From assembly GCA_015370545.1 (NCBI GenBank), contig GCA_015370545.1_3932.1: a DNA stretch of 64,000 nucleotides; one strand, 5' to 3'. The position numbers were made by a program, and so were the translations under genes. Shown piece by piece: positions 1,607 through 37,064 of this stretch. The stretch comes from a phage. Each line of letters starts with the position of its first letter. Within the stretch, counting starts at the first letter, position 1. Below the pieces are notes generated by a model. It saw only the letters and a program-made list of their open reading frames with translations. It was not told the origin of the DNA and did not search any database.

Positions 1607-4156
1607 ATGGCAGATTACAAATTGAGTCAATTAAACTCAATCGACACAATTCGTTCAGAAGACCTATTGCACATCAGAGTTAAGAAAAGACCTGAAATGT
1701 TGGGTGATGAAGACCGTAGAATGACCTATCAAGACTTCTTGGCTTCCTTCAAACTAGAAAGGTTTGTTCAGATTGCTGGAAGCACTATGACTGGGGATTT
1801 AGGTATTGTCAAGTTACTTTACGGTGGAAAGTCTGTATTTGACCCTACAGGCTCTTCTGAGATTACTATTGGGGATATTTTAAAGACTTTTAAAATTAAC
1901 GCAAATGGTCTTAAACTAACTATTGCAGATGCTTCAAGGTCAGCAACTGTTTATCATACTCTGAATAAGCCAAGTCCTAATGAGCTTGGTATGAGAACTA
2001 ATGAAGAGAATGATACAAGATACGCAAGACTTGCTATCACAAACACATTCTCTGGAACTCAAAATATTCAAGGTGATGCTAACTTACTTCGCCTTAGAAA
2101 CCAAAATGCAAATAATGCACAATATATCGAAGGTGTAAACCTAGATGGTTCGGCTAGATGGTGGGTTGGTATTGGTAGTAATGGCTCTGACGAAGTAAAG
2201 CTGTACAATAACAAATACAACTCAGCCTTGACTGTTGCAAGTAATGTCTCTGTTAATAAGTCTTTAGCAATCACTGGTCAAGTTCAACCTTCAGATTTCT
2301 CTAACTTAGATGCTAGATACTTCACTCAGACAGTTGCTAATCAGAGATTTGCACAGTTAGCTGGTAATAACACCTTTACAGGTGCTAACACATTTAGGAC
2401 TATGAGTGTTATCTCAAATGCTGCTGCTATCACACTGCAATGTGCATCAGCAAACGAATCCCTGTATCTACTTGCAAAAGATTATGAAGGTGGAAACTTA
2501 TGGTATCTTGGTAAAGGTAGTTCAGGTGCTGGTGTAACTATCTACAACTATACCACTAACACCTCTTTAGTCTTAGATGCTGCTGGAGTATCAGCAAATA
2601 AAAATGTCAGAATCACTGGTCAAGTTCAACCTTCAGATTGGGCTAACATTGACTCTAGATATATTCCGGCAGCAACATTAAGTACAATTGCAAGAACTAA
2701 TGCACAAAATGCTTTTAATGGTGTACAGAAAGTTGTTACGGATAATGAAGCCCTAATTGTGAAAAACTCTACTCAGAACAGACCATTGTATATCCGTGGT
2801 GTGGACACTGCTAATGTGTCAAGGTGGTGGGTAGGTGTTGGTGGGGCAGATACTAATGATGTAACCCTAAATAACAGTTTTTCTGGCACTCAGTTAGTTC
2901 TCGGGAATACAACATCATACATTAACAAAACATTGACTATTGCTGGACAAGTTCAACCTTCAGATTTCTCTAACTTAGATGCTAGATACTTTACGCAAAG
3001 TGCTAGTGATAGTAGATACCTAAGAATCAGAAGCACTAGCTTCAATGTGGGAAACACTGATAAGTGGGCTAAAATTGCCACTGTTGTGATGCCACAATCA
3101 GCATCCACTGCTGTTATTGAGGTATTTGGTGGGTCAGGTTTTAATATTAATACACCAAACCAAGCAGGTAAATGTGAAATTGTTCTGCGAACTTCAAATA
3201 ACAATCCAAAGGGCTTAAATGTTGTTGCTTGGAGAACATCAGAGAACACCATTGTCAGGGATATTGGTTATGTGAATACTTCTGGAGACACCTATGATAT
3301 TTACTATCTTGCTGGTACGTATCAAAACAGCACAACGACAAGGGTTCAGTCTTCTAGTAATGCAAGTGTACAGTTGTTTGAAGTCCCACAGACATTTGAT
3401 GATGCTCCACAAGGTATTGTGAAGGGTACAATTGCAAAATACTACACAAGTTTGCAAAAACCAACCCCTTCAGATATTGGTGCATACACTAAAGCAGAAA
3501 CTGACCAGAAGATTGCAGAAGCAATTAGTGACTCTACAGACCTGAATAAAATCTATCCAGTAGGTATTGTGACGTGGTTTAACAGTAATGTTAACCCTAA
3601 TACAGCACTTCCTGGTCTAACTTGGACGTACCTGAATAATGGTGTTGGTAGAACTATTAGAATTGCAGCAGCAAACGGTTCAGATGTTGCTACAACTGGT
3701 GGTTCAGACTCTGTAACGTTGTCTGTTGGTAACTTGCCTTCACACACGCACAGCTTCTCTGCTACTACTTCATCATTTGACTATGGTACTAAGACTTCTA
3801 GCACAACTGGTAACCACAACCACAACAGAGGTACTATGGAGATTACTGGTTCATTTGGTTACTTCAGAAGTGACGCTAGTAGCTTCTACACAGCAAGTGG
3901 TGCATTCTACCTCGGTAGTCAGGCAGGTTCTAAAGGGTATACTGGTAACAACTTTACTAATGGTATCCCTGTCAACTTCAACGCATCAAGAAACTGGTCT
4001 GGTGTAACGAATACAACAGGTAACCACAGCCACACTGTTGGTATTGGTGCTCACAGCCACACAGTTAGCGGTAACACAGGTGGTACTGGTTCTGGTTCAG
4101 CATTTAGTGTTACTAACCAGTTCTATAAGTTAATGGCTTGGGTAAGAACTGCTTAA
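1607..4156 (+). CDS. long tail fibre protein
   Basis: 849-aa ORF; threefold internal repeat ITGQVQPSD(F/W)(S/A)N(L/I)D(A/S)RY; C-terminal HxH repeats (HTHSFS, GNHNHN, GNHSHTVGIGAHSHTV) and ending shared with ORF 385..1560. Confidence 0.75.
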   Translation: MADYKLSQLNSIDTIRSEDLLHIRVKKRPEMLGDEDRRMTYQDFLASFKLERFVQIAGSTMTGDLGIVKLLYGGKSVFDPTGSSEITIGDILKTFKINANGLKLTIADASRSATVYHTLNKPSPNELGMRTNEENDTRYARLAITNTFSGTQNIQGDANLLRLRNQNANNAQYIEGVNLDGSARWWVGIGSNGSDEVKLYNNKYNSALTVASNVSVNKSLAITGQVQPSDFSNLDARYFTQTVANQRFAQLAGNNTFTGANTFRTMSVISNAAAITLQCASANESLYLLAKDYEGGNLWYLGKGSSGAGVTIYNYTTNTSLVLDAAGVSANKNVRITGQVQPSDWANIDSRYIPAATLSTIARTNAQNAFNGVQKVVTDNEALIVKNSTQNRPLYIRGVDTANVSRWWVGVGGADTNDVTLNNSFSGTQLVLGNTTSYINKTLTIAGQVQPSDFSNLDARYFTQSASDSRYLRIRSTSFNVGNTDKWAKIATVVMPQSASTAVIEVFGGSGFNINTPNQAGKCEIVLRTSNNNPKGLNVVAWRTSENTIVRDIGYVNTSGDTYDIYYLAGTYQNSTTTRVQSSSNASVQLFEVPQTFDDAPQGIVKGTIAKYYTSLQKPTPSDIGAYTKAETDQKIAEAISDSTDLNKIYPVGIVTWFNSNVNPNTALPGLTWTYLNNGVGRTIRIAAANGSDVATTGGSDSVTLSVGNLPSHTHSFSATTSSFDYGTKTSSTTGNHNHNRGTMEITGSFGYFRSDASSFYTASGAFYLGSQAGSKGYTGNNFTNGIPVNFNASRNWSGVTNTTGNHSHTVGIGAHSHTVSGNTGGTGSGSAFSVTNQFYKLMAWVRTA

Positions 4157-31369: not shown

Positions 31370-31627
31370 ATGGGACTTTGGAATAGTTTTAAATTAAAAG
31401 TAAAAGCAGCACTAGCTTCATTAGGTATGCTCACTGGTGTTGATGTGACTCATCTTATGCAGAATTTTAAGATGGATGAGAGGCTGGCTAATGAGATTAT
31501 GGAAAGTATCTATGTAGGCCGTGGCAAAGGTGGTAAGAAACAAGCCCACCGCCAATCCGGTGCAGCAGCTATTAAACGAGCAGCTAAGAAAGCTCGTAAC
31601 CGTAAACGTAACAAGAAGGTTAAATAA
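31370..31627 (+). CDS. hypothetical basic protein
   Basis: 85 aa, K/R-rich C-terminus. Confidence 0.4.
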   Translation: MGLWNSFKLKVKAALASLGMLTGVDVTHLMQNFKMDERLANEIMESIYVGRGKGGKKQAHRQSGAAAIKRAAKKARNRKRNKKVK

Positions 31628-31629
31628 CC

Positions 31630-31950
31630 ATGAGCAAAGTTTATAACACTCGTAAATTACAGATTTTCGTACTGTGCCAGTTTATGGCTAAAGAATACAA
31701 CTTCTACTATTGTGGTACAGGTTTTATTAGTGATGATGATGGCTCATACCTCCCATTCAAAGAGGCTGTAAAACTCTTCAATGAAGAGAAAAGCTCTAAG
31801 AAAGATATTGAAAAGGTTAAGCTAACCTACAGCAAGAGAGATAAGAAGATTATCTGCCTAGATAACTTTGTGAAAGTTACTGGAGAAGCAAAAGAGTTTA
31901 TGGATGAGAGTGAGATTTCATTCACAAGCATCTTGAAAGTAGCTCAGTAA
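31630..31950 (+). CDS. hypothetical protein
   Basis: 106-aa ORF. Confidence 0.45.
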   Translation: MSKVYNTRKLQIFVLCQFMAKEYNFYYCGTGFISDDDGSYLPFKEAVKLFNEEKSSKKDIEKVKLTYSKRDKKIICLDNFVKVTGEAKEFMDESEISFTSILKVAQ

Positions 31951-32001
31951 ACAGATACTATAAGGGGACTGTAAAGGTTCCCTTTTTATTTTGGAGATAA
32001 C

Positions 32002-32517
32002 ATGTATCTGTCAAATCTGAAACGTTCGGCTGCAATGTCAGTTCTAAGACTCAGCTTTGAGGAACGTCAAGAGTTCATTGACTCCCACCAATACGACCCT
32101 TCTAACTCAAATCACATGATTCTCTGGAATCGTGAGAGCACTCGTGAAAGAGCACTATTCCGCTATTACCCACACTACACTATAGATAATTTGTATGAAT
32201 GTTTTGTTGTGAAGAACACCATTACAGTTCTCAATAAACTTTGCAGATACACAGATAGTCAATCCTTCACATTAGGTCACCACAAGCCTGTTACAAAAGG
32301 TGGTGAACATCACTGTGCAAACTGGTTTATTCAGACTAAAGCTGATAATCAAAAGCAAGGAGATAGCCTTCTAAGCACTCCCAAGATGACCTATGAAGAG
32401 CAAGAGAAATATATCAAAAATAATATGCCAGATGTGCTTGACAACAACTATACAGATTTGGCAATATCTCTCCTGTTGAAGTTCGAGACAGTTTATAGGG
32501 CAACTTACAATGGCTAA
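32002..32517 (+). CDS. putative HNH-family endonuclease
   Basis: 171 aa; LGHHKPVTKGGEHHCANW resembles an HNH core; weak. Confidence 0.4.
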   Translation: MYLSNLKRSAAMSVLRLSFEERQEFIDSHQYDPSNSNHMILWNRESTRERALFRYYPHYTIDNLYECFVVKNTITVLNKLCRYTDSQSFTLGHHKPVTKGGEHHCANWFIQTKADNQKQGDSLLSTPKMTYEEQEKYIKNNMPDVLDNNYTDLAISLLLKFETVYRATYNG

Positions 32518-32788
32518 AGAAAAGTGGGAGATTTTACCACTAGTCAGTGAGGGTGGTAATGGTTGTGAAATGTACATGATACGTGGTCATGTCCCAGAAC
32601 CAATTGCACTTGAGATGGTAAACAATTTTACAGATGGCTCTTACAAAGACTTGGGAGAACCAACTGTCAAGCAACAATGGGTTAAACCTGTACCAGACAG
32701 CACAGGTAACTGTAGTGTACTTTATCACGTTGTAGACCCTGCAAAATGCAAATCTGCAATGGCAGTAACAAACGTAACTTTTGATTGA
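32510..32788 (+). CDS. hypothetical protein
   Basis: 92-aa ORF. Confidence 0.4.
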   Translation: MAKEKWEILPLVSEGGNGCEMYMIRGHVPEPIALEMVNNFTDGSYKDLGEPTVKQQWVKPVPDSTGNCSVLYHVVDPAKCKSAMAVTNVTFD

Positions 32789-32803
32789 GAGAGAGAGAAA
32801 ACT

Positions 32804-33268
32804 ATGATTTTTTGCAATTCCCAGAAGCATGTAATAGAGATTCTATATAAGGAGTTTGGTACAGAGAACACCTTTGACTCAAATGAAGCAATTGATGTAC
32901 TAAGAGAAAAAAGCCTCTTTATAAGAGGTCAATCAATTAACAATGCTCGTGGCTACCTAACAGTGCTAAGGCAATCCGGTGTACTGATAACTGTAGGCCA
33001 AATAAAAAGTAAGGGGAGACTAAGCATCAACCAGATTAACCGAGCTTTTATGGAGAAACACCCACAACTATCACGAATGTTAGATGATGGACATGGGGAG
33101 GTAAAGAGCCTTCAAAAAACAACCTCGACCGATGTTAATTCAGTTGACATACAACCAGATGTTAGGTATTTTATTGAGGATGTGATGTTTAAAACAATGG
33201 ATGAAGCAGTTGAACACTGTAAAAAACATCTGATTAAAGTTAAACGTGCAAAGATTGTTTGGGAATAA
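32804..33268 (+). CDS. hypothetical protein, tandem paralogue A
   Basis: 154 aa; shares EILYKEFGT..FDSNEAI...PQLSR(M/L)LD...(V/A)KYFI(E/D)...AVE(H/Y)CKK..IK.KR.KI.WE with next ORF. Confidence 0.5.
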   Translation: MIFCNSQKHVIEILYKEFGTENTFDSNEAIDVLREKSLFIRGQSINNARGYLTVLRQSGVLITVGQIKSKGRLSINQINRAFMEKHPQLSRMLDDGHGEVKSLQKTTSTDVNSVDIQPDVRYFIEDVMFKTMDEAVEHCKKHLIKVKRAKIVWE

Positions 33269-33301
33269 TACTTCAAAAACTTCTATTGAGAGAAAAAGAA
33301 C

Positions 33302-33754
33302 ATGTTAAGTTCATTTTACATAGCACTGACTGAGATTCTATATAAAGAATTTGGTACAGATACCATCTTTGACTCTAATGAGGCTATAAAAGCTCTCAGA
33401 AGTGGAAGTGACTGCCTAAGTAAAAGCCCTATAGCAAACATTCGGTATTACTTGACCACAATGCGTAAAATGGGGCTACTGATGGCTGTAAGTCAGGGAA
33501 CAAAAGACTGTGCTTCTCTATACCTAAACCAACTAAATAAAATGATGATAGAGAGCGACCCACAACTATCAAGACTACTTGATAGTGTTGACAAAACTAA
33601 TAGGAATACAAGAACATCAAAACCAAAAGGTGAGTTCCTCCCTGATGCAAAATACTTTATTGATGAACTAATGTTTGATACCATAGAAGATGCAGTTGAG
33701 TATTGCAAAAAGAATATTATTAAGTTGAAAAGAAAGAAAATTATTTGGGAATAA
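33302..33754 (+). CDS. hypothetical protein, tandem paralogue B
   Basis: 150 aa; paralogue of 32804..33268. Confidence 0.5.
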   Translation: MLSSFYIALTEILYKEFGTDTIFDSNEAIKALRSGSDCLSKSPIANIRYYLTTMRKMGLLMAVSQGTKDCASLYLNQLNKMMIESDPQLSRLLDSVDKTNRNTRTSKPKGEFLPDAKYFIDELMFDTIEDAVEYCKKNIIKLKRKKIIWE

Positions 33755-34662
33755 AACTACCATTATCGAGAGAGAAAACTATGAAAACATCTATCCGTGT
33801 TACAGTTCATTCACCAACTAAAGGAACTCATGAAGAAGAGTTTAACATCATCCAATTTCCTTCTGGTGAGATTGGTGGACACTTTTCGCCAGAGTTTGTT
33901 GATTTCACTGCTTATGCAGCATCATCCATCAACAATGTGATTATGATTGTAAAAGGTTATGATAAGGATACATTGTTTGCTGTGGCACTTGCTAAAGAAG
34001 CAATTGATGATTTAATTCCTCATGGTTATGCTTTAAAGACTGTCATCTTTTACTACTTACCAAATGCACGTTATGACCGTCACATGTTTAAAGGCGACGC
34101 AGCAGCTTTAAAGGTTTTTGCTAAACAGGTAAATGCAATGGGATTTGGTGCAGTCTGTGCAGTTGACCCTCACAGCTATGTACCAGATAACCTGTTTAAC
34201 TGCTTCCAGAGTATTCCTCAAAAGGAAATTGCAGTCCACTATGCAAATGACCCACTGATTGATTACTTAGTAGCCCCAGATGCAGGTGCTGCTAAGAAGA
34301 TTGCAGAGACTGCTAAAGAGGTGGATAAACCATATATCACAATGTCTAAAGTACGCAACCTTAAGACTGGTGAAATTACTGGTATGCGAATCCTTGATGA
34401 TGTTGATTTGACAGATAAAACCGTCATGATTCTGGATGATATCTGTGATGGTGGTCGAACCTTCATAGAAGCAGCTAAACATCTTCGTGAAGCAGGTGCA
34501 AAACGTGTGGAACTCTATGTAACACACGGTATCTTCTCTAAAGATGTTGAAAACCTTCTTGACAATGGCATTGACCACATCTACACTACAAACTCTTTAG
34601 GGGAAGCTAAAGACCGTGGCTTAACACATTATGGTCAAGTTACTGTAGCAAACCTTGATTGA
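33745..34662 (+). CDS. ribose-phosphate pyrophosphokinase-like (PRPP synthetase fold) protein
   Basis: 305 aa; type I PRTase-type PRPP-binding loop VMILDDICDGGRT; divergent N-terminus; immediately upstream of NAMPT-like gene. Confidence 0.75.
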   Translation: MGIKLPLSREKTMKTSIRVTVHSPTKGTHEEEFNIIQFPSGEIGGHFSPEFVDFTAYAASSINNVIMIVKGYDKDTLFAVALAKEAIDDLIPHGYALKTVIFYYLPNARYDRHMFKGDAAALKVFAKQVNAMGFGAVCAVDPHSYVPDNLFNCFQSIPQKEIAVHYANDPLIDYLVAPDAGAAKKIAETAKEVDKPYITMSKVRNLKTGEITGMRILDDVDLTDKTVMILDDICDGGRTFIEAAKHLREAGAKRVELYVTHGIFSKDVENLLDNGIDHIYTTNSLGEAKDRGLTHYGQVTVANLD

Positions 34663-34671
34663 AACTTTATA

Positions 34672-34692
34672 GGGGCTTAAAAGCCCCATTTT
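34672..34692 (+). terminator. hairpin/partial terminator between PRS-like and NAMPT-like genes
   Basis: GGGGCTT-AAA-AGCCCC followed by ATTTT. Confidence 0.55.
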
Positions 34693-34707
34693 GAGAGAGA
34701 TTAAAAG

Positions 34708-36489
34708 ATGACTAAATCACTTTATGCAGTACCAGCAGGTTTAAACGCAGATGCTTACAAATCTGGTCATGTTTACCAGTACCCTAGTGCAACAGAGTAC
34801 TTGATGTTCAACCTGACACCACGTAGTGACAAATGGTTTAACAGCCCCTTAGCAATTGATGGTGTAGTAGCTTTTGGTATTCAACGTTTCGTTAAAGATT
34901 ACTTGATAGACCACTGGAACGCCACTTTCTTTGAACGTGATAAAAAAGAAGCCATTGATGAAATCTTAGAAGTCATGAATGGTGTTCTGGGTAAAGATGC
35001 TATCGGTCGAGAGCATTGGGAAGCACTTCACGACTTAGGTTATCTACCAGTTGAAGTATACGCTGTAGAAGAAGGTACAGTTGTTCCTATGCGTGTACCA
35101 ATGATTGTCTTCCAGAACACTGTTTCAGGTTTCCATTGGGTAGCGGGATATCTGGAAGATGCTTTCTCTGCTGAGATTTGGAAGGCTTGTACCATTGCAA
35201 CTATTGCATTGCATTATAAACGCATCTGTAAGAAGTGGGCTGACCTTACTTGCGACAATGACTTACATTTACCTTATCAGTGCCATGACTTTGCTATGCG
35301 TGGTATGTCCGGCTTTACTGATGACGCATTTAACGCTGTAGGCCACTTAACCAGCTTTAAAGGGACTGATAGCTTCCCTGCTGTATATACAGCTAAACGC
35401 ATCTACGGACAGTCTTACCAAGTCTCTGATATTGGTGGTTCTGTACCAGCCACTGAACACTCTGTAATGTGTGCAAACATTGCTTGGGAAGGTGGTAATG
35501 AGTTGGTTGAAGAAGAAAGACGCTTTAAAGGTGAGTTACAAACCTTCCGTCGTTTCTTAACAGAAACTTACCCAACGGGTATTGCAAGTGTTGTTTCAGA
35601 TACTTATAACTTCTGGAGAACTGTGTCAGAAATCTTACCAGCACTCCGTAAAGAAATTATGGAACGTGATGGCAAACTGGTAATTCGTCCTGACTCTGGA
35701 GACCCTGTACACATTGTCACAGGTTATAAAACAATCCACTTAGAGTGTGCTAAAAAGGCTTATTACGAGCACCTAAGTAAGCTGGAAGCCAGTGACGCAA
35801 TGCTGAATGCTGTTCTGAACATGAAGCTTGAAAACATCAGCTATGGTATTGCTGGATGGCTACTGTCAGAAGGCTACGAAATGGTTGTTGACAGAGAAGA
35901 CTTTGAAGTTGCTGATACAGTGCTGTTGAAGAACGCTTATATGGTTGGCTCTGCAAACGTTGTAACACGCCCTGTAGCAGAGATTGATGGAGCTATTAAG
36001 ACCTTGTATAACATCTTTGGAGGAACTATCAACTCTAAAGGTTTTAAGGTACTGGATGAGCACATTGGACTTATCTATGGTGACTCTATCACGTTGGAAC
36101 GTGCAAACGAAATCCTGAAGCGTCTGTATGAAATGGGGTTTGCAAGCTCTAACGTGGTGTTTGGTGTAGGCTCTTACACTTACCAGTACATGACTCGTGA
36201 CACCTTTGCATTTGCTGTCAAAGCAACTCTTGCAAGCATTGGTGGCAAAGAGATTATGCTTGCAAAAGACCCTAAAACAGATAGTGGTGTTAAGAAATCT
36301 GCCTTTGGTGGTGTAGCACCTATGTGGGATGGTGAGAATTTGAAAGCTGTAGATGGCTACGGATTCCAGAGCTTTGCAGATGCACTTGACCACCCAGCTT
36401 GTGCTTTACGTTTAGTCTTTAGCAACTCTGAGCAGTTCGGTTACACATCTCTTGGTGATATTCGAAATAATATTGACAAGCAGCTTTAA
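34708..36489 (+). CDS. nicotinamide phosphoribosyltransferase (NAMPT) family protein
   Basis: 593 aa; HLTSFKGTDS and GLIYGDSITLERANEIL...VVFGVGSYTYQ correspond to conserved NAMPT active-site regions. Confidence 0.85.
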   Translation: MTKSLYAVPAGLNADAYKSGHVYQYPSATEYLMFNLTPRSDKWFNSPLAIDGVVAFGIQRFVKDYLIDHWNATFFERDKKEAIDEILEVMNGVLGKDAIGREHWEALHDLGYLPVEVYAVEEGTVVPMRVPMIVFQNTVSGFHWVAGYLEDAFSAEIWKACTIATIALHYKRICKKWADLTCDNDLHLPYQCHDFAMRGMSGFTDDAFNAVGHLTSFKGTDSFPAVYTAKRIYGQSYQVSDIGGSVPATEHSVMCANIAWEGGNELVEEERRFKGELQTFRRFLTETYPTGIASVVSDTYNFWRTVSEILPALRKEIMERDGKLVIRPDSGDPVHIVTGYKTIHLECAKKAYYEHLSKLEASDAMLNAVLNMKLENISYGIAGWLLSEGYEMVVDREDFEVADTVLLKNAYMVGSANVVTRPVAEIDGAIKTLYNIFGGTINSKGFKVLDEHIGLIYGDSITLERANEILKRLYEMGFASSNVVFGVGSYTYQYMTRDTFAFAVKATLASIGGKEIMLAKDPKTDSGVKKSAFGGVAPMWDGENLKAVDGYGFQSFADALDHPACALRLVFSNSEQFGYTSLGDIRNNIDKQL

Positions 36490-36504
36490 AAGTATATGAT
36501 AAGA

Positions 36505-36525
36505 GGCTCCTACGGGAGCCTTTTT
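36505..36525 (+). terminator. rho-independent terminator
   Basis: GGCTCC-TACG-GGAGCC followed by TTTTT. Confidence 0.65.
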
Positions 36526-36542
36526 AATTTCTGGAGAAGATT

Positions 36543-36878
36543 ATGAAAATCAAAGAGATGAACATCAACATTGTCTTAGAAGAACGTTGGGAGAATATTA
36601 AGAAACCTGAAGATGGTAAAAAGCTCCTTAACAAAATTTTAGTAGCAGCTAAAGAAGAACTGAATGGCAAGATTGCAGCAGCAGTCACAATAAAAGTTTG
36701 TGTAAAAGGTCTTCCAGACAACCACCAATTTGCGCTTGACGAGTTTAAAAAAAGCTTCTACAATCCAAACAAACAGATGCTTGAAAGTAACTTTGCAGTA
36801 TCTACAAGTATCGTCCATGACAGAAGCTTTATCCTTTACAAAAATATGAGAGGTGAGTCATGCAAGCATATTGGATAG
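36543..36878 (+). CDS. hypothetical protein
   Basis: 111-aa ORF. Confidence 0.45.
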   Translation: MKIKEMNINIVLEERWENIKKPEDGKKLLNKILVAAKEELNGKIAAAVTIKVCVKGLPDNHQFALDEFKKSFYNPNKQMLESNFAVSTSIVHDRSFILYKNMRGESCKHIG

Positions 36879-37064
36879 AAATTTTACTGTCACTTGGTAG
36901 CGTAGCAGTGTTTGTTTACCTTCTTTGCAAGTACTTTGCAGAACACAAGAAGTGTGACTACTGTAACGGAGAAGGGTATACAAGAGCAGGTTGTTGCCCT
37001 ATGTGTGGCGGTTCTGGTAAGATGTTTAATAAGTAATTTAACAGTAAACTAAGAGGAAAGTATT

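Follow-up and report, generated by a model that had tools for sequence, protein, structure and literature searches.

Two tandem genes, ORF1 and ORF2, lie directly upstream of the anti-defence operon NARP1 in a 64,000-nucleotide stretch of phage DNA (the window, meaning the whole stretch that was analysed), and comparison with related phages suggests, with a probability of roughly 0.45, that they are an optional, recombination-mobile pair encoding nucleic-acid-binding accessory proteins that would be co-transcribed with NARP1. The pair (the cassette) is neither a new kind of system nor a component of NARP1. The window is a Felix O1-like myovirus of the genus Felixounavirus. Identity across the region is 94-100% to Escherichia phage vB_EcoM-Pr103Blw and, outside the two genes, 97-99% to SP22 and wV8. 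Features of the locus are listed in Table 1.

Table 1. Features at and around the cassette, with positions in the window.
Feature	Position (nt)	Strand	Remarks
Sigma-70-like promoter match TTGAAA-17-TACTAT	31933..31961	+	Directly before gp133 homologue; predicted unit start
Terminator-like hairpin and T-run	31962..31984	+	Closes upstream unit; conserved across genera
gp133 homologue	32002..32517	+	phrog_3500, HNH-like motif; first gene of the unit, in all relatives
gp134 homologue	32510..32788	+	phrog_4726; left neighbour of cassette
Left copy, 17-nt perfect direct repeat GAGAGAGAAAACTATGA	32791..32807	+	Ribosome-binding region and ATG of ORF1
ORF1, type A paralogue	32804..33268	+	154 aa
ORF1 winged helix (predicted)	32816-33028		~aa 5-75; linker at aa 95-118
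ORF1 conserved basic C-terminal mini-domain	33158-33265		aa 119-154
ORF2, type B paralogue	33302..33754	+	150 aa
ORF2 winged helix (predicted)	33311-33526		~aa 4-75; linker follows
ORF2 beta-hairpin plus helix (model)	33644-33751		aa 115-150
Right copy, 17-nt perfect direct repeat GAGAGAGAAAACTATGA	33768..33784	+	Ribosome-binding region and ATG of adps
adps, PRS-like ADPR-pyrophosphate synthetase of NARP1	33781..34662	+	Pfam Pribosyltran and Pribosyl_synth; right neighbour of cassette
namat, NAMPT-like nicotinamide ADPR-transferase of NARP1	34708..36489	+	Pfam NAPRTase and NAMPT_N
Terminator-like hairpin	36501..36524	+	After namat; end of predicted unit

The two genes downstream of ORF2, which the earlier note had called an NAD module, occur in the same order as in Bas63 (JohannRWettstein). 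Bas63 genes 79 and 80 were shown by experiment to constitute NARP1, a two-gene operon in which Adps pyrophosphorylates ADP-ribose and Namat adds nicotinamide, so that NAD+ is rebuilt and NAD-depleting defence systems are countered (bioRxiv 10.1101/2024.02.11.579819). Because of their homology to these genes, the two window genes are read as the anti-defence operon NARP1 and not as a PRPP/NMN salvage pair, and the ribose-phosphate pyrophosphokinase and nicotinamide phosphoribosyltransferase labels that databases attach to 33781-36489 are functionally misleading. The gain for annotation is that the downstream genes become NARP1 (Adps/Namat), with the two upstream genes outside the NAD pathway. 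The start of the PRS-like gene is most likely ATG 33781, as in relatives, rather than TTG 33745, and ORF2 therefore does not overlap adps. The Adps allele is mosaic, the window product being 100% identical at the amino acid level to that of SP22 and just 79% identical to that of Bas63 gene 79, and Namat is 97-98% identical to both (97% to gene 80).

All genes of the locus lie on the same strand, with spacers of 15, 33 and 26 nt around ORF1 and ORF2, and purine-rich ribosome-binding regions are present upstream of each ATG. At the start of the predicted unit the promoter-like site abuts the hairpin, and an 18-nt gap then leads to gp133. This promoter-hairpin-RBS unit is conserved in nine Ounavirinae and is the same whether the cassette is present or absent, the -35 element being invariant. 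No terminator-like site was found in the plus-strand spacers around ORF1 and ORF2, between the two hairpins. One weak plus-strand match with three G-C pairs (33872-33892) lies inside the adps coding sequence, and the hairpin after namat is predicted to be the only convincing downstream plus-strand site. Mordin and Moogle both annotate terminators at the matching place upstream of gp133, and Mordin also after namat. The predicted transcription unit is thus gp133-gp134-(cassette)-adps-namat. The shared promoter-hairpin-RBS unit, the lack of a plus-strand terminator in the spacers and the conserved terminators make co-transcription of ORF1 and ORF2 with NARP1 plausible, in agreement with the co-expression with the NAD module that the earlier note had supposed. 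No cassette-specific operator was visible at the operon promoter in the nine Ounavirinae compared, the inverted repeats within and around the cassette are weak ones only, and no Rfam families were found in 31500-37000.

The compact terminator/promoter unit at 31933-31991 (promoter-like site, hairpin, T-run and RBS) is conserved in both Felixounavirus and Mooglevirus and is reminiscent of promoter-stem-loop elements in T4-type phages. The gp133 homologue that follows it carries an HNH-like motif (GHHKPVTKGGEHHCANW) with weak PHROG matches to HNH endonucleases (E 6e-4), and is kept in all relatives, unlike typical free-standing homing genes.

That ORF1 and ORF2 are clear paralogues, as proposed from the sequence at the outset, is borne out by BLASTP (68/146 identities, 47%, E 4e-38) and by full-length matches of both proteins to a single PHROG profile. 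ORF1 matched phrog_29478 end to end (E 6.1e-70, aa 1-154 on profile 1-150), as did ORF2 (E 6.2e-58, aa 1-150 on profile 2-150), and both are accordingly members of PHROG 29478. The blocks EILYKEFGT, FDSNEAI, PQLSR.LD and AVE.CKK..IK.KR.KI.WE, singled out in the earlier note, recur in both proteins; KYFI is RYFI in ORF1. The divergent centre described there is also real, and in structural models it maps to the H2-H3 loop, the wing and chiefly a linker of ~25 residues with pLDDT below 50, regions in which least constraint is expected. The further suggestion that one copy is diversifying did not survive, as purifying selection acts on both types and the A/B split is older than the split between Felixounavirus and Mooglevirus. 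In orthologue comparisons dN/dS ranged from 0.04 to 0.22, with values of 0.04-0.06 when type A of the window was compared with ESCO49 or fBSPA4 and of 0.16 when type B was compared with Mordin, and purifying selection was seen on both domains of every paralogue type. These comparisons show that both are real genes, an old pair of paralogues kept by purifying selection. An HMM search of all six-frame ORFs found no further paralogue in the window.

PHROG 29478 is a very small family that, on present sequence records, is restricted to Ounavirinae phages. Its members include Mordin_7/8, Pr103Blw_00123/124 and ESCO49_00091-94, all annotated 'hypothetical protein', and identity to the Pr103Blw proteins is 100% for ORF1 and 99% for ORF2. 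Of 50,697 phage records searched with tblastn, 16 contained the family, corresponding to 14 distinct phages, and all carriers are Felixounavirus or Mooglevirus with two or four copies each. The NARP1 region was matched by 237-258 records against these 16, and the cassette is absent from >90% of Ounavirinae and from every NARP1 phage outside the Ounavirinae. A search of 5.8 billion proteins returned 17 clusters, and an exhaustive HMMER scan of 1.84 billion representatives gave three true relatives and one spurious match, P0009, which was rejected as an unrelated low-complexity repeat protein. Pattern scans detected no relatives in 185,579 bacterial and archaeal species genomes (GTDB) or in IMG/VR, and only two loci, both in the same context, in JGI metagenomes. 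Protein P0008 is identical to ORF2; it is recorded as a hypothetical protein from both Shigella flexneri and Escherichia coli, and the contigs concerned reach 89.6 kb. Some bacterial assemblies probably hold Felixounavirus genomes.

In all 13 complete cassette contexts (the window and 12 loci) the genes have gp134 or its remnant on their left and adps on their right, and a partial locus (L014) agrees with this placement. The contexts examined show this one fixed position and no second insertion site. In cassette-less phages, among them wV8, JLBYU32, SP22, Bas63, Moogle and Sf18, adps directly follows the gp134 homologue. These loci show the cassette to be optional and inserted between the gp134 homologue and adps. 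The co-occurrence with PRS/NAMPT pairs that the earlier note had put forward as a check is therefore seen from one side only: the family adjoins adps in every case, but most NARP1 phages lack the family. As the carriers form one syntenic phage lineage, the constant adjacency is weak, and not independent, evidence of a functional link. In fBSPA4 (locus L001, ~3090-3123) the gp134 homologue is cut to a remnant of ~9 codons (MAVTNVTFD-stop) just before the cassette, apparently after an in-frame deletion bounded by short ATGGC repeats, and gp134 is therefore also dispensable.

Three arrangements of the paralogues were distinguished. A-B (154 + 150 aa) occurs in the window, Pr103Blw and Mordin, and probably in Henu11 and KMM2, which have two copies each. 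C-D (151 + 131 aa) occurs in metagenomic contigs with a more distant backbone. C-D-A-E occurs in ESCO49, fBSPA4 and a further locus (L018), and presumably in the other four-copy records such as finno and JN01. Clustering placed a "long" clade (A, C and B) apart from a "short" clade (D and E), and the cassette unit is always a pair, with one or two pairs per locus.

Divergence within the cassette does not match that of its flanks. Between type A of the window and of ESCO49 synonymous sites are saturated (pS 0.71), whereas flanking genes of the same genome pair show pS of 0.12-0.23. The window cassette is 100% and 99.6% identical at the nucleotide level to that of Pr103Blw, of which the flanks are only 94-95% identical, and the window adps is 99.9% identical in nucleotides to that of the cassette-less SP22. 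Backbones with just ~75% identity carry C and D genes that are 85-91% identical. These mismatches show a cassette history separate from that of the backbone, with old allelic lineages exchanged by recombination. The cassette is bounded by direct repeats of the translation-initiation region, which in the window form the 17-mer of Table 1, in Mordin a perfect 37-mer that takes in the last gp134 codons, and in other cassettes 9-24 nt; if the repeats recombined with each other, the product would be precisely the junction of the cassette-less wV8. GC content is slightly lower in the cassette (35.3%) than in its flanks (38.5-41.3%). The locus thus offers a clean case of optional gene pairs in virulent Felix O1-like phages, swapped between backbones within a conserved operon. 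The window and Pr103Blw with the cassette and SP22 without it are natural near-isogenic phages, in which a phenotype would be easily testable.

AlphaFold2 models of ORF1 and ORF2 were built on shallow alignments of 9 and 17 sequences. Both contain an N-terminal winged helix (H1, short strand, H2, H3 and a two-stranded wing; pLDDT ~80-88) with the wHTH topology H1-b1-H2-H3-b2-wing-b3, followed by two more helices and the low-confidence linker. The C-terminal module was modelled at low confidence (pLDDT 30-72 across models), ending in a beta-hairpin plus helix in ORF2 (pLDDT 52-72) and in a helix only in ORF1. The predicted layout of each protein is thus a winged helix at the N-terminus, then a flexible linker and a basic C-terminal module of ~35 residues. 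Foldseek searches of the PDB returned only winged-helix DNA-binding domains (PerR/Fur, BpsR/MepR (MarR), MecI, forkhead and ORC), with probability ~1.0 and weak E-values (best 6.5e-3). Roquin ROQ and cullin WHB domains were also among the fold matches, and winged helices can bind RNA or proteins too. In BFVD the matches were a family member and generic viral wHTH proteins. Residues invariant in all five paralogue types are mostly core residues, R56 and G59 after H3, and a C-terminal pattern F..F..A...C....I..K.....WE. The first 95 residues of ORF2, within which its winged helix lies, are not basic (pI 6.15, against 9.30 for ORF1).

Neither protein had an above-threshold match in Pfam, NCBIfam, PADLOC or the PDB sequences. 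No curated wHTH family of Pfam or NCBIfam (MarR, Fur, PadR, AbiEi and others) exceeded its cut-off, AbiEi_4 being matched only at E 0.22 in 2/17 members. The lack of family membership at the sequence level, the weak Foldseek E-values, the failure to find a candidate operator, the non-basic N-terminal part of ORF2 and the ability of winged helices to bind RNA or proteins argue against DNA binding. The family is already present in databases as hypothetical proteins, with neither a function nor a fold assigned. No published work on PHROG 29478 was found, nor any linking Felixounavirus to these genes, to a winged helix or to PRS/NAMPT, and the NARP3 and RES papers do not mention the neighbouring genes.

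Several other identities were considered and rejected. In a PDB profile search the C-terminal block matched NCK1/2 SH2 domains in their bD-aB region, but below threshold (E 0.13-0.31), with 'YCIGQRKFSTMEELVEHYKK' aligned against 'YFIeelMFdTleeAVEHCKK'. Since a 35-residue module is too small for an SH2 domain and the E-value is non-significant, this is taken as a local strand-strand-helix resemblance. An HNH or beta-beta-alpha-Me nuclease is not indicated, as conserved catalytic residues are absent, the C-terminal invariants are limited to F, F, A, C, I, K, W and E, and ORF2 and several other members have Tyr in place of the His of 'VEHC'; no catalytic-looking motif was found in either protein. 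A NARP1 component by homology was rejected because there is no Pribosyltran or NAPRTase domain and the PHROG differs from those of adps and namat. Nor is the cassette present wherever the pathway functions, given its absence from Bas63 and its 16 records against 237-258. An NAD-responsive regulator of the NrtR, NiaR or NadR kind was also rejected, as there is no Nudix, 3H or NMNAT/RNK domain, only the C-terminal module.

Known systems resemble the pair in part. Fur/PerR, MarR/MepR, MecI/BlaI and SarX are small bacterial repressors in which a winged helix is combined with a C-terminal dimerisation module. The paralogues differ from them in having no detectable sequence homology, no metal- or ligand-binding residues and an unrelated C-terminal module, and in being encoded by tandem phage genes. 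STIV F93 (PDB 2co5) and SSV1 F-93 (PDB 1tbx), which are among the fold matches, are likewise stand-alone viral winged-helix proteins; however, these archaeal-virus proteins are single-domain, disulfide-linked dimers that lack sequence similarity and do not occur as paired paralogues. Aca-type autoregulators are small proteins of the helix-turn-helix class that share an operon with counter-defence genes, as is predicted for ORF1 and ORF2, and AcrIIA1 also joins a DNA-binding N-terminal domain to a second, C-terminal functional domain. Aca genes are consistent companions of their anti-defence genes and lie downstream of them, whereas >90% of the NARP1 operons of this lineage lack the pair, which lies upstream. 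No homology was identified for the pair, and no operator inverted repeat at the operon promoter is tied to the presence of the cassette. With respect to NARP1 as defined (Adps + Namat), the paralogues are no part of the two-gene operon and are absent from Bas63.

In the preferred reading, that of an optional accessory pair, the winged helix of each protein would bind nucleic acid, most likely DNA. The conserved C-terminal module would, purely by conjecture, serve association into homodimers or into heterodimers of the two partners of a pair, and dimerisation between partners would explain why the genes always occur in twos. The proteins would be made early, alongside nucleotide-metabolism and NARP1 genes, and would be neither enzymes nor cofactors of the NAD pathway. 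They may instead form a dispensable regulatory or host-interference factor, of help only in some hosts or conditions, and recombination at the junction repeats, whether homologous or microhomology-based, would spread or remove the cassette.

A less likely explanation is that the two are stand-alone anti-defence proteins, inhibiting a host immune system through its protein or nucleic-acid parts and residing in a hotspot beside NARP1. Counter-defence cargo typically shows the patchy presence, variable copy number and movement between backbones seen here, the adjoining NARP1 is a proven anti-defence operon, the GC content of the cassette departs slightly from that of its flanks, and indels occur at nearby gene boundaries (an HNH gene in Moogle and a 114-aa gene after namat). 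However, neither PHROG nor PADLOC gave any similarity to known anti-defence or defence proteins, and the strong purifying selection carries no sign of an arms race; where the target is nucleic acid, this explanation overlaps with an accessory pair that binds nucleic acid.

The earlier note had seen the pair as possible regulators or accessory factors, and in this the regulator-like nature fits the predicted winged-helix fold, but a dependence of the NAD module on the pair does not hold: NARP1 does not need the cassette, since Bas63, in which NARP1 is proven, and the near-identical backbone of SP22 both lack it. It is accordingly rather improbable that the proteins are NARP1-specific, whether tuning adps and namat in an Aca-like manner, sensing ligands derived from NAD or ADPR, or assisting the enzymes. 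Their place directly upstream of adps in every context, the shared predicted transcript and a fold typical of small-molecule-responsive repressors would suit such a role. Yet Bas63, >90% of Ounavirinae and all NARP1 phages outside them do without the cassette; the 100% identical Adps of SP22 leaves no co-adapted allele; cassette-bearing and cassette-less phages have identical promoter regions; Nudix, 3H and NMNAT ligand-binding domains are all absent; and single-lineage synteny accounts for the adjacency. A bolder version, in which the pair is a functional extension of the NARP1 locus, acting as a heterodimeric winged-helix sensor or regulator of NAD-breakdown products or as an inhibitor of a NARP1-resistant host defence, would account for the confinement of these genes to this locus and for their constant pairing, and is similarly doubtful. 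Should the pair prove to be an anti-defence factor or a NARP1 modulator, one more component would be added to phage NAD counter-defence.

It is very unlikely that the cassette is a selfish element of no benefit to the phage, which recombination or gene conversion would maintain in a region with many homing-endonuclease-like genes. The flanking direct repeats, the history discordant with the flanks and the HNH-type genes nearby (the weakly HNH-like gp133, the Moogle HNH gene and HNH_3 after nrdD in one locus, L011) would fit. Against this, the proteins have no nuclease, recombinase or transposase motif, the cassette occupies a single fixed position, and both domains are under purifying selection in every paralogue type. 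That the ORFs are functionless, being decaying duplicates or mis-called frames, might be thought from their narrow distribution and lack of a known function, but is hardly credible given ORFs intact in all carriers, dN/dS far below 1 even with saturated synonymous sites, purine-rich ribosome-binding regions before each ATG and a two-domain pattern conserved across five paralogue types.

Other parts of the neighbourhood also vary. The gp132 homologue (31630-31950) is labelled 'putative HNH endonuclease' in many records, but its only match is to Pfam DUF7390 (E 2e-16), and its amino acid identity among relatives is sharply variable (48-99%), which suggests allele replacement. In Moogle (L007, 3831-4322) an HNH endonuclease gene lies between adps and namat and splits the NARP1 operon, showing that the boundaries between genes in this operon are recurrent insertion points. 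The gene of 114 aa is found after namat in Pr103Blw, JLBYU32 and Bas63 (L006, 7749-8093; L010, 6053-6397) and is lacking from the window (~36490-36543). In other relatives the same place holds a DUF7279 gene of ~71-73 aa, making it a second variable slot beside NARP1.
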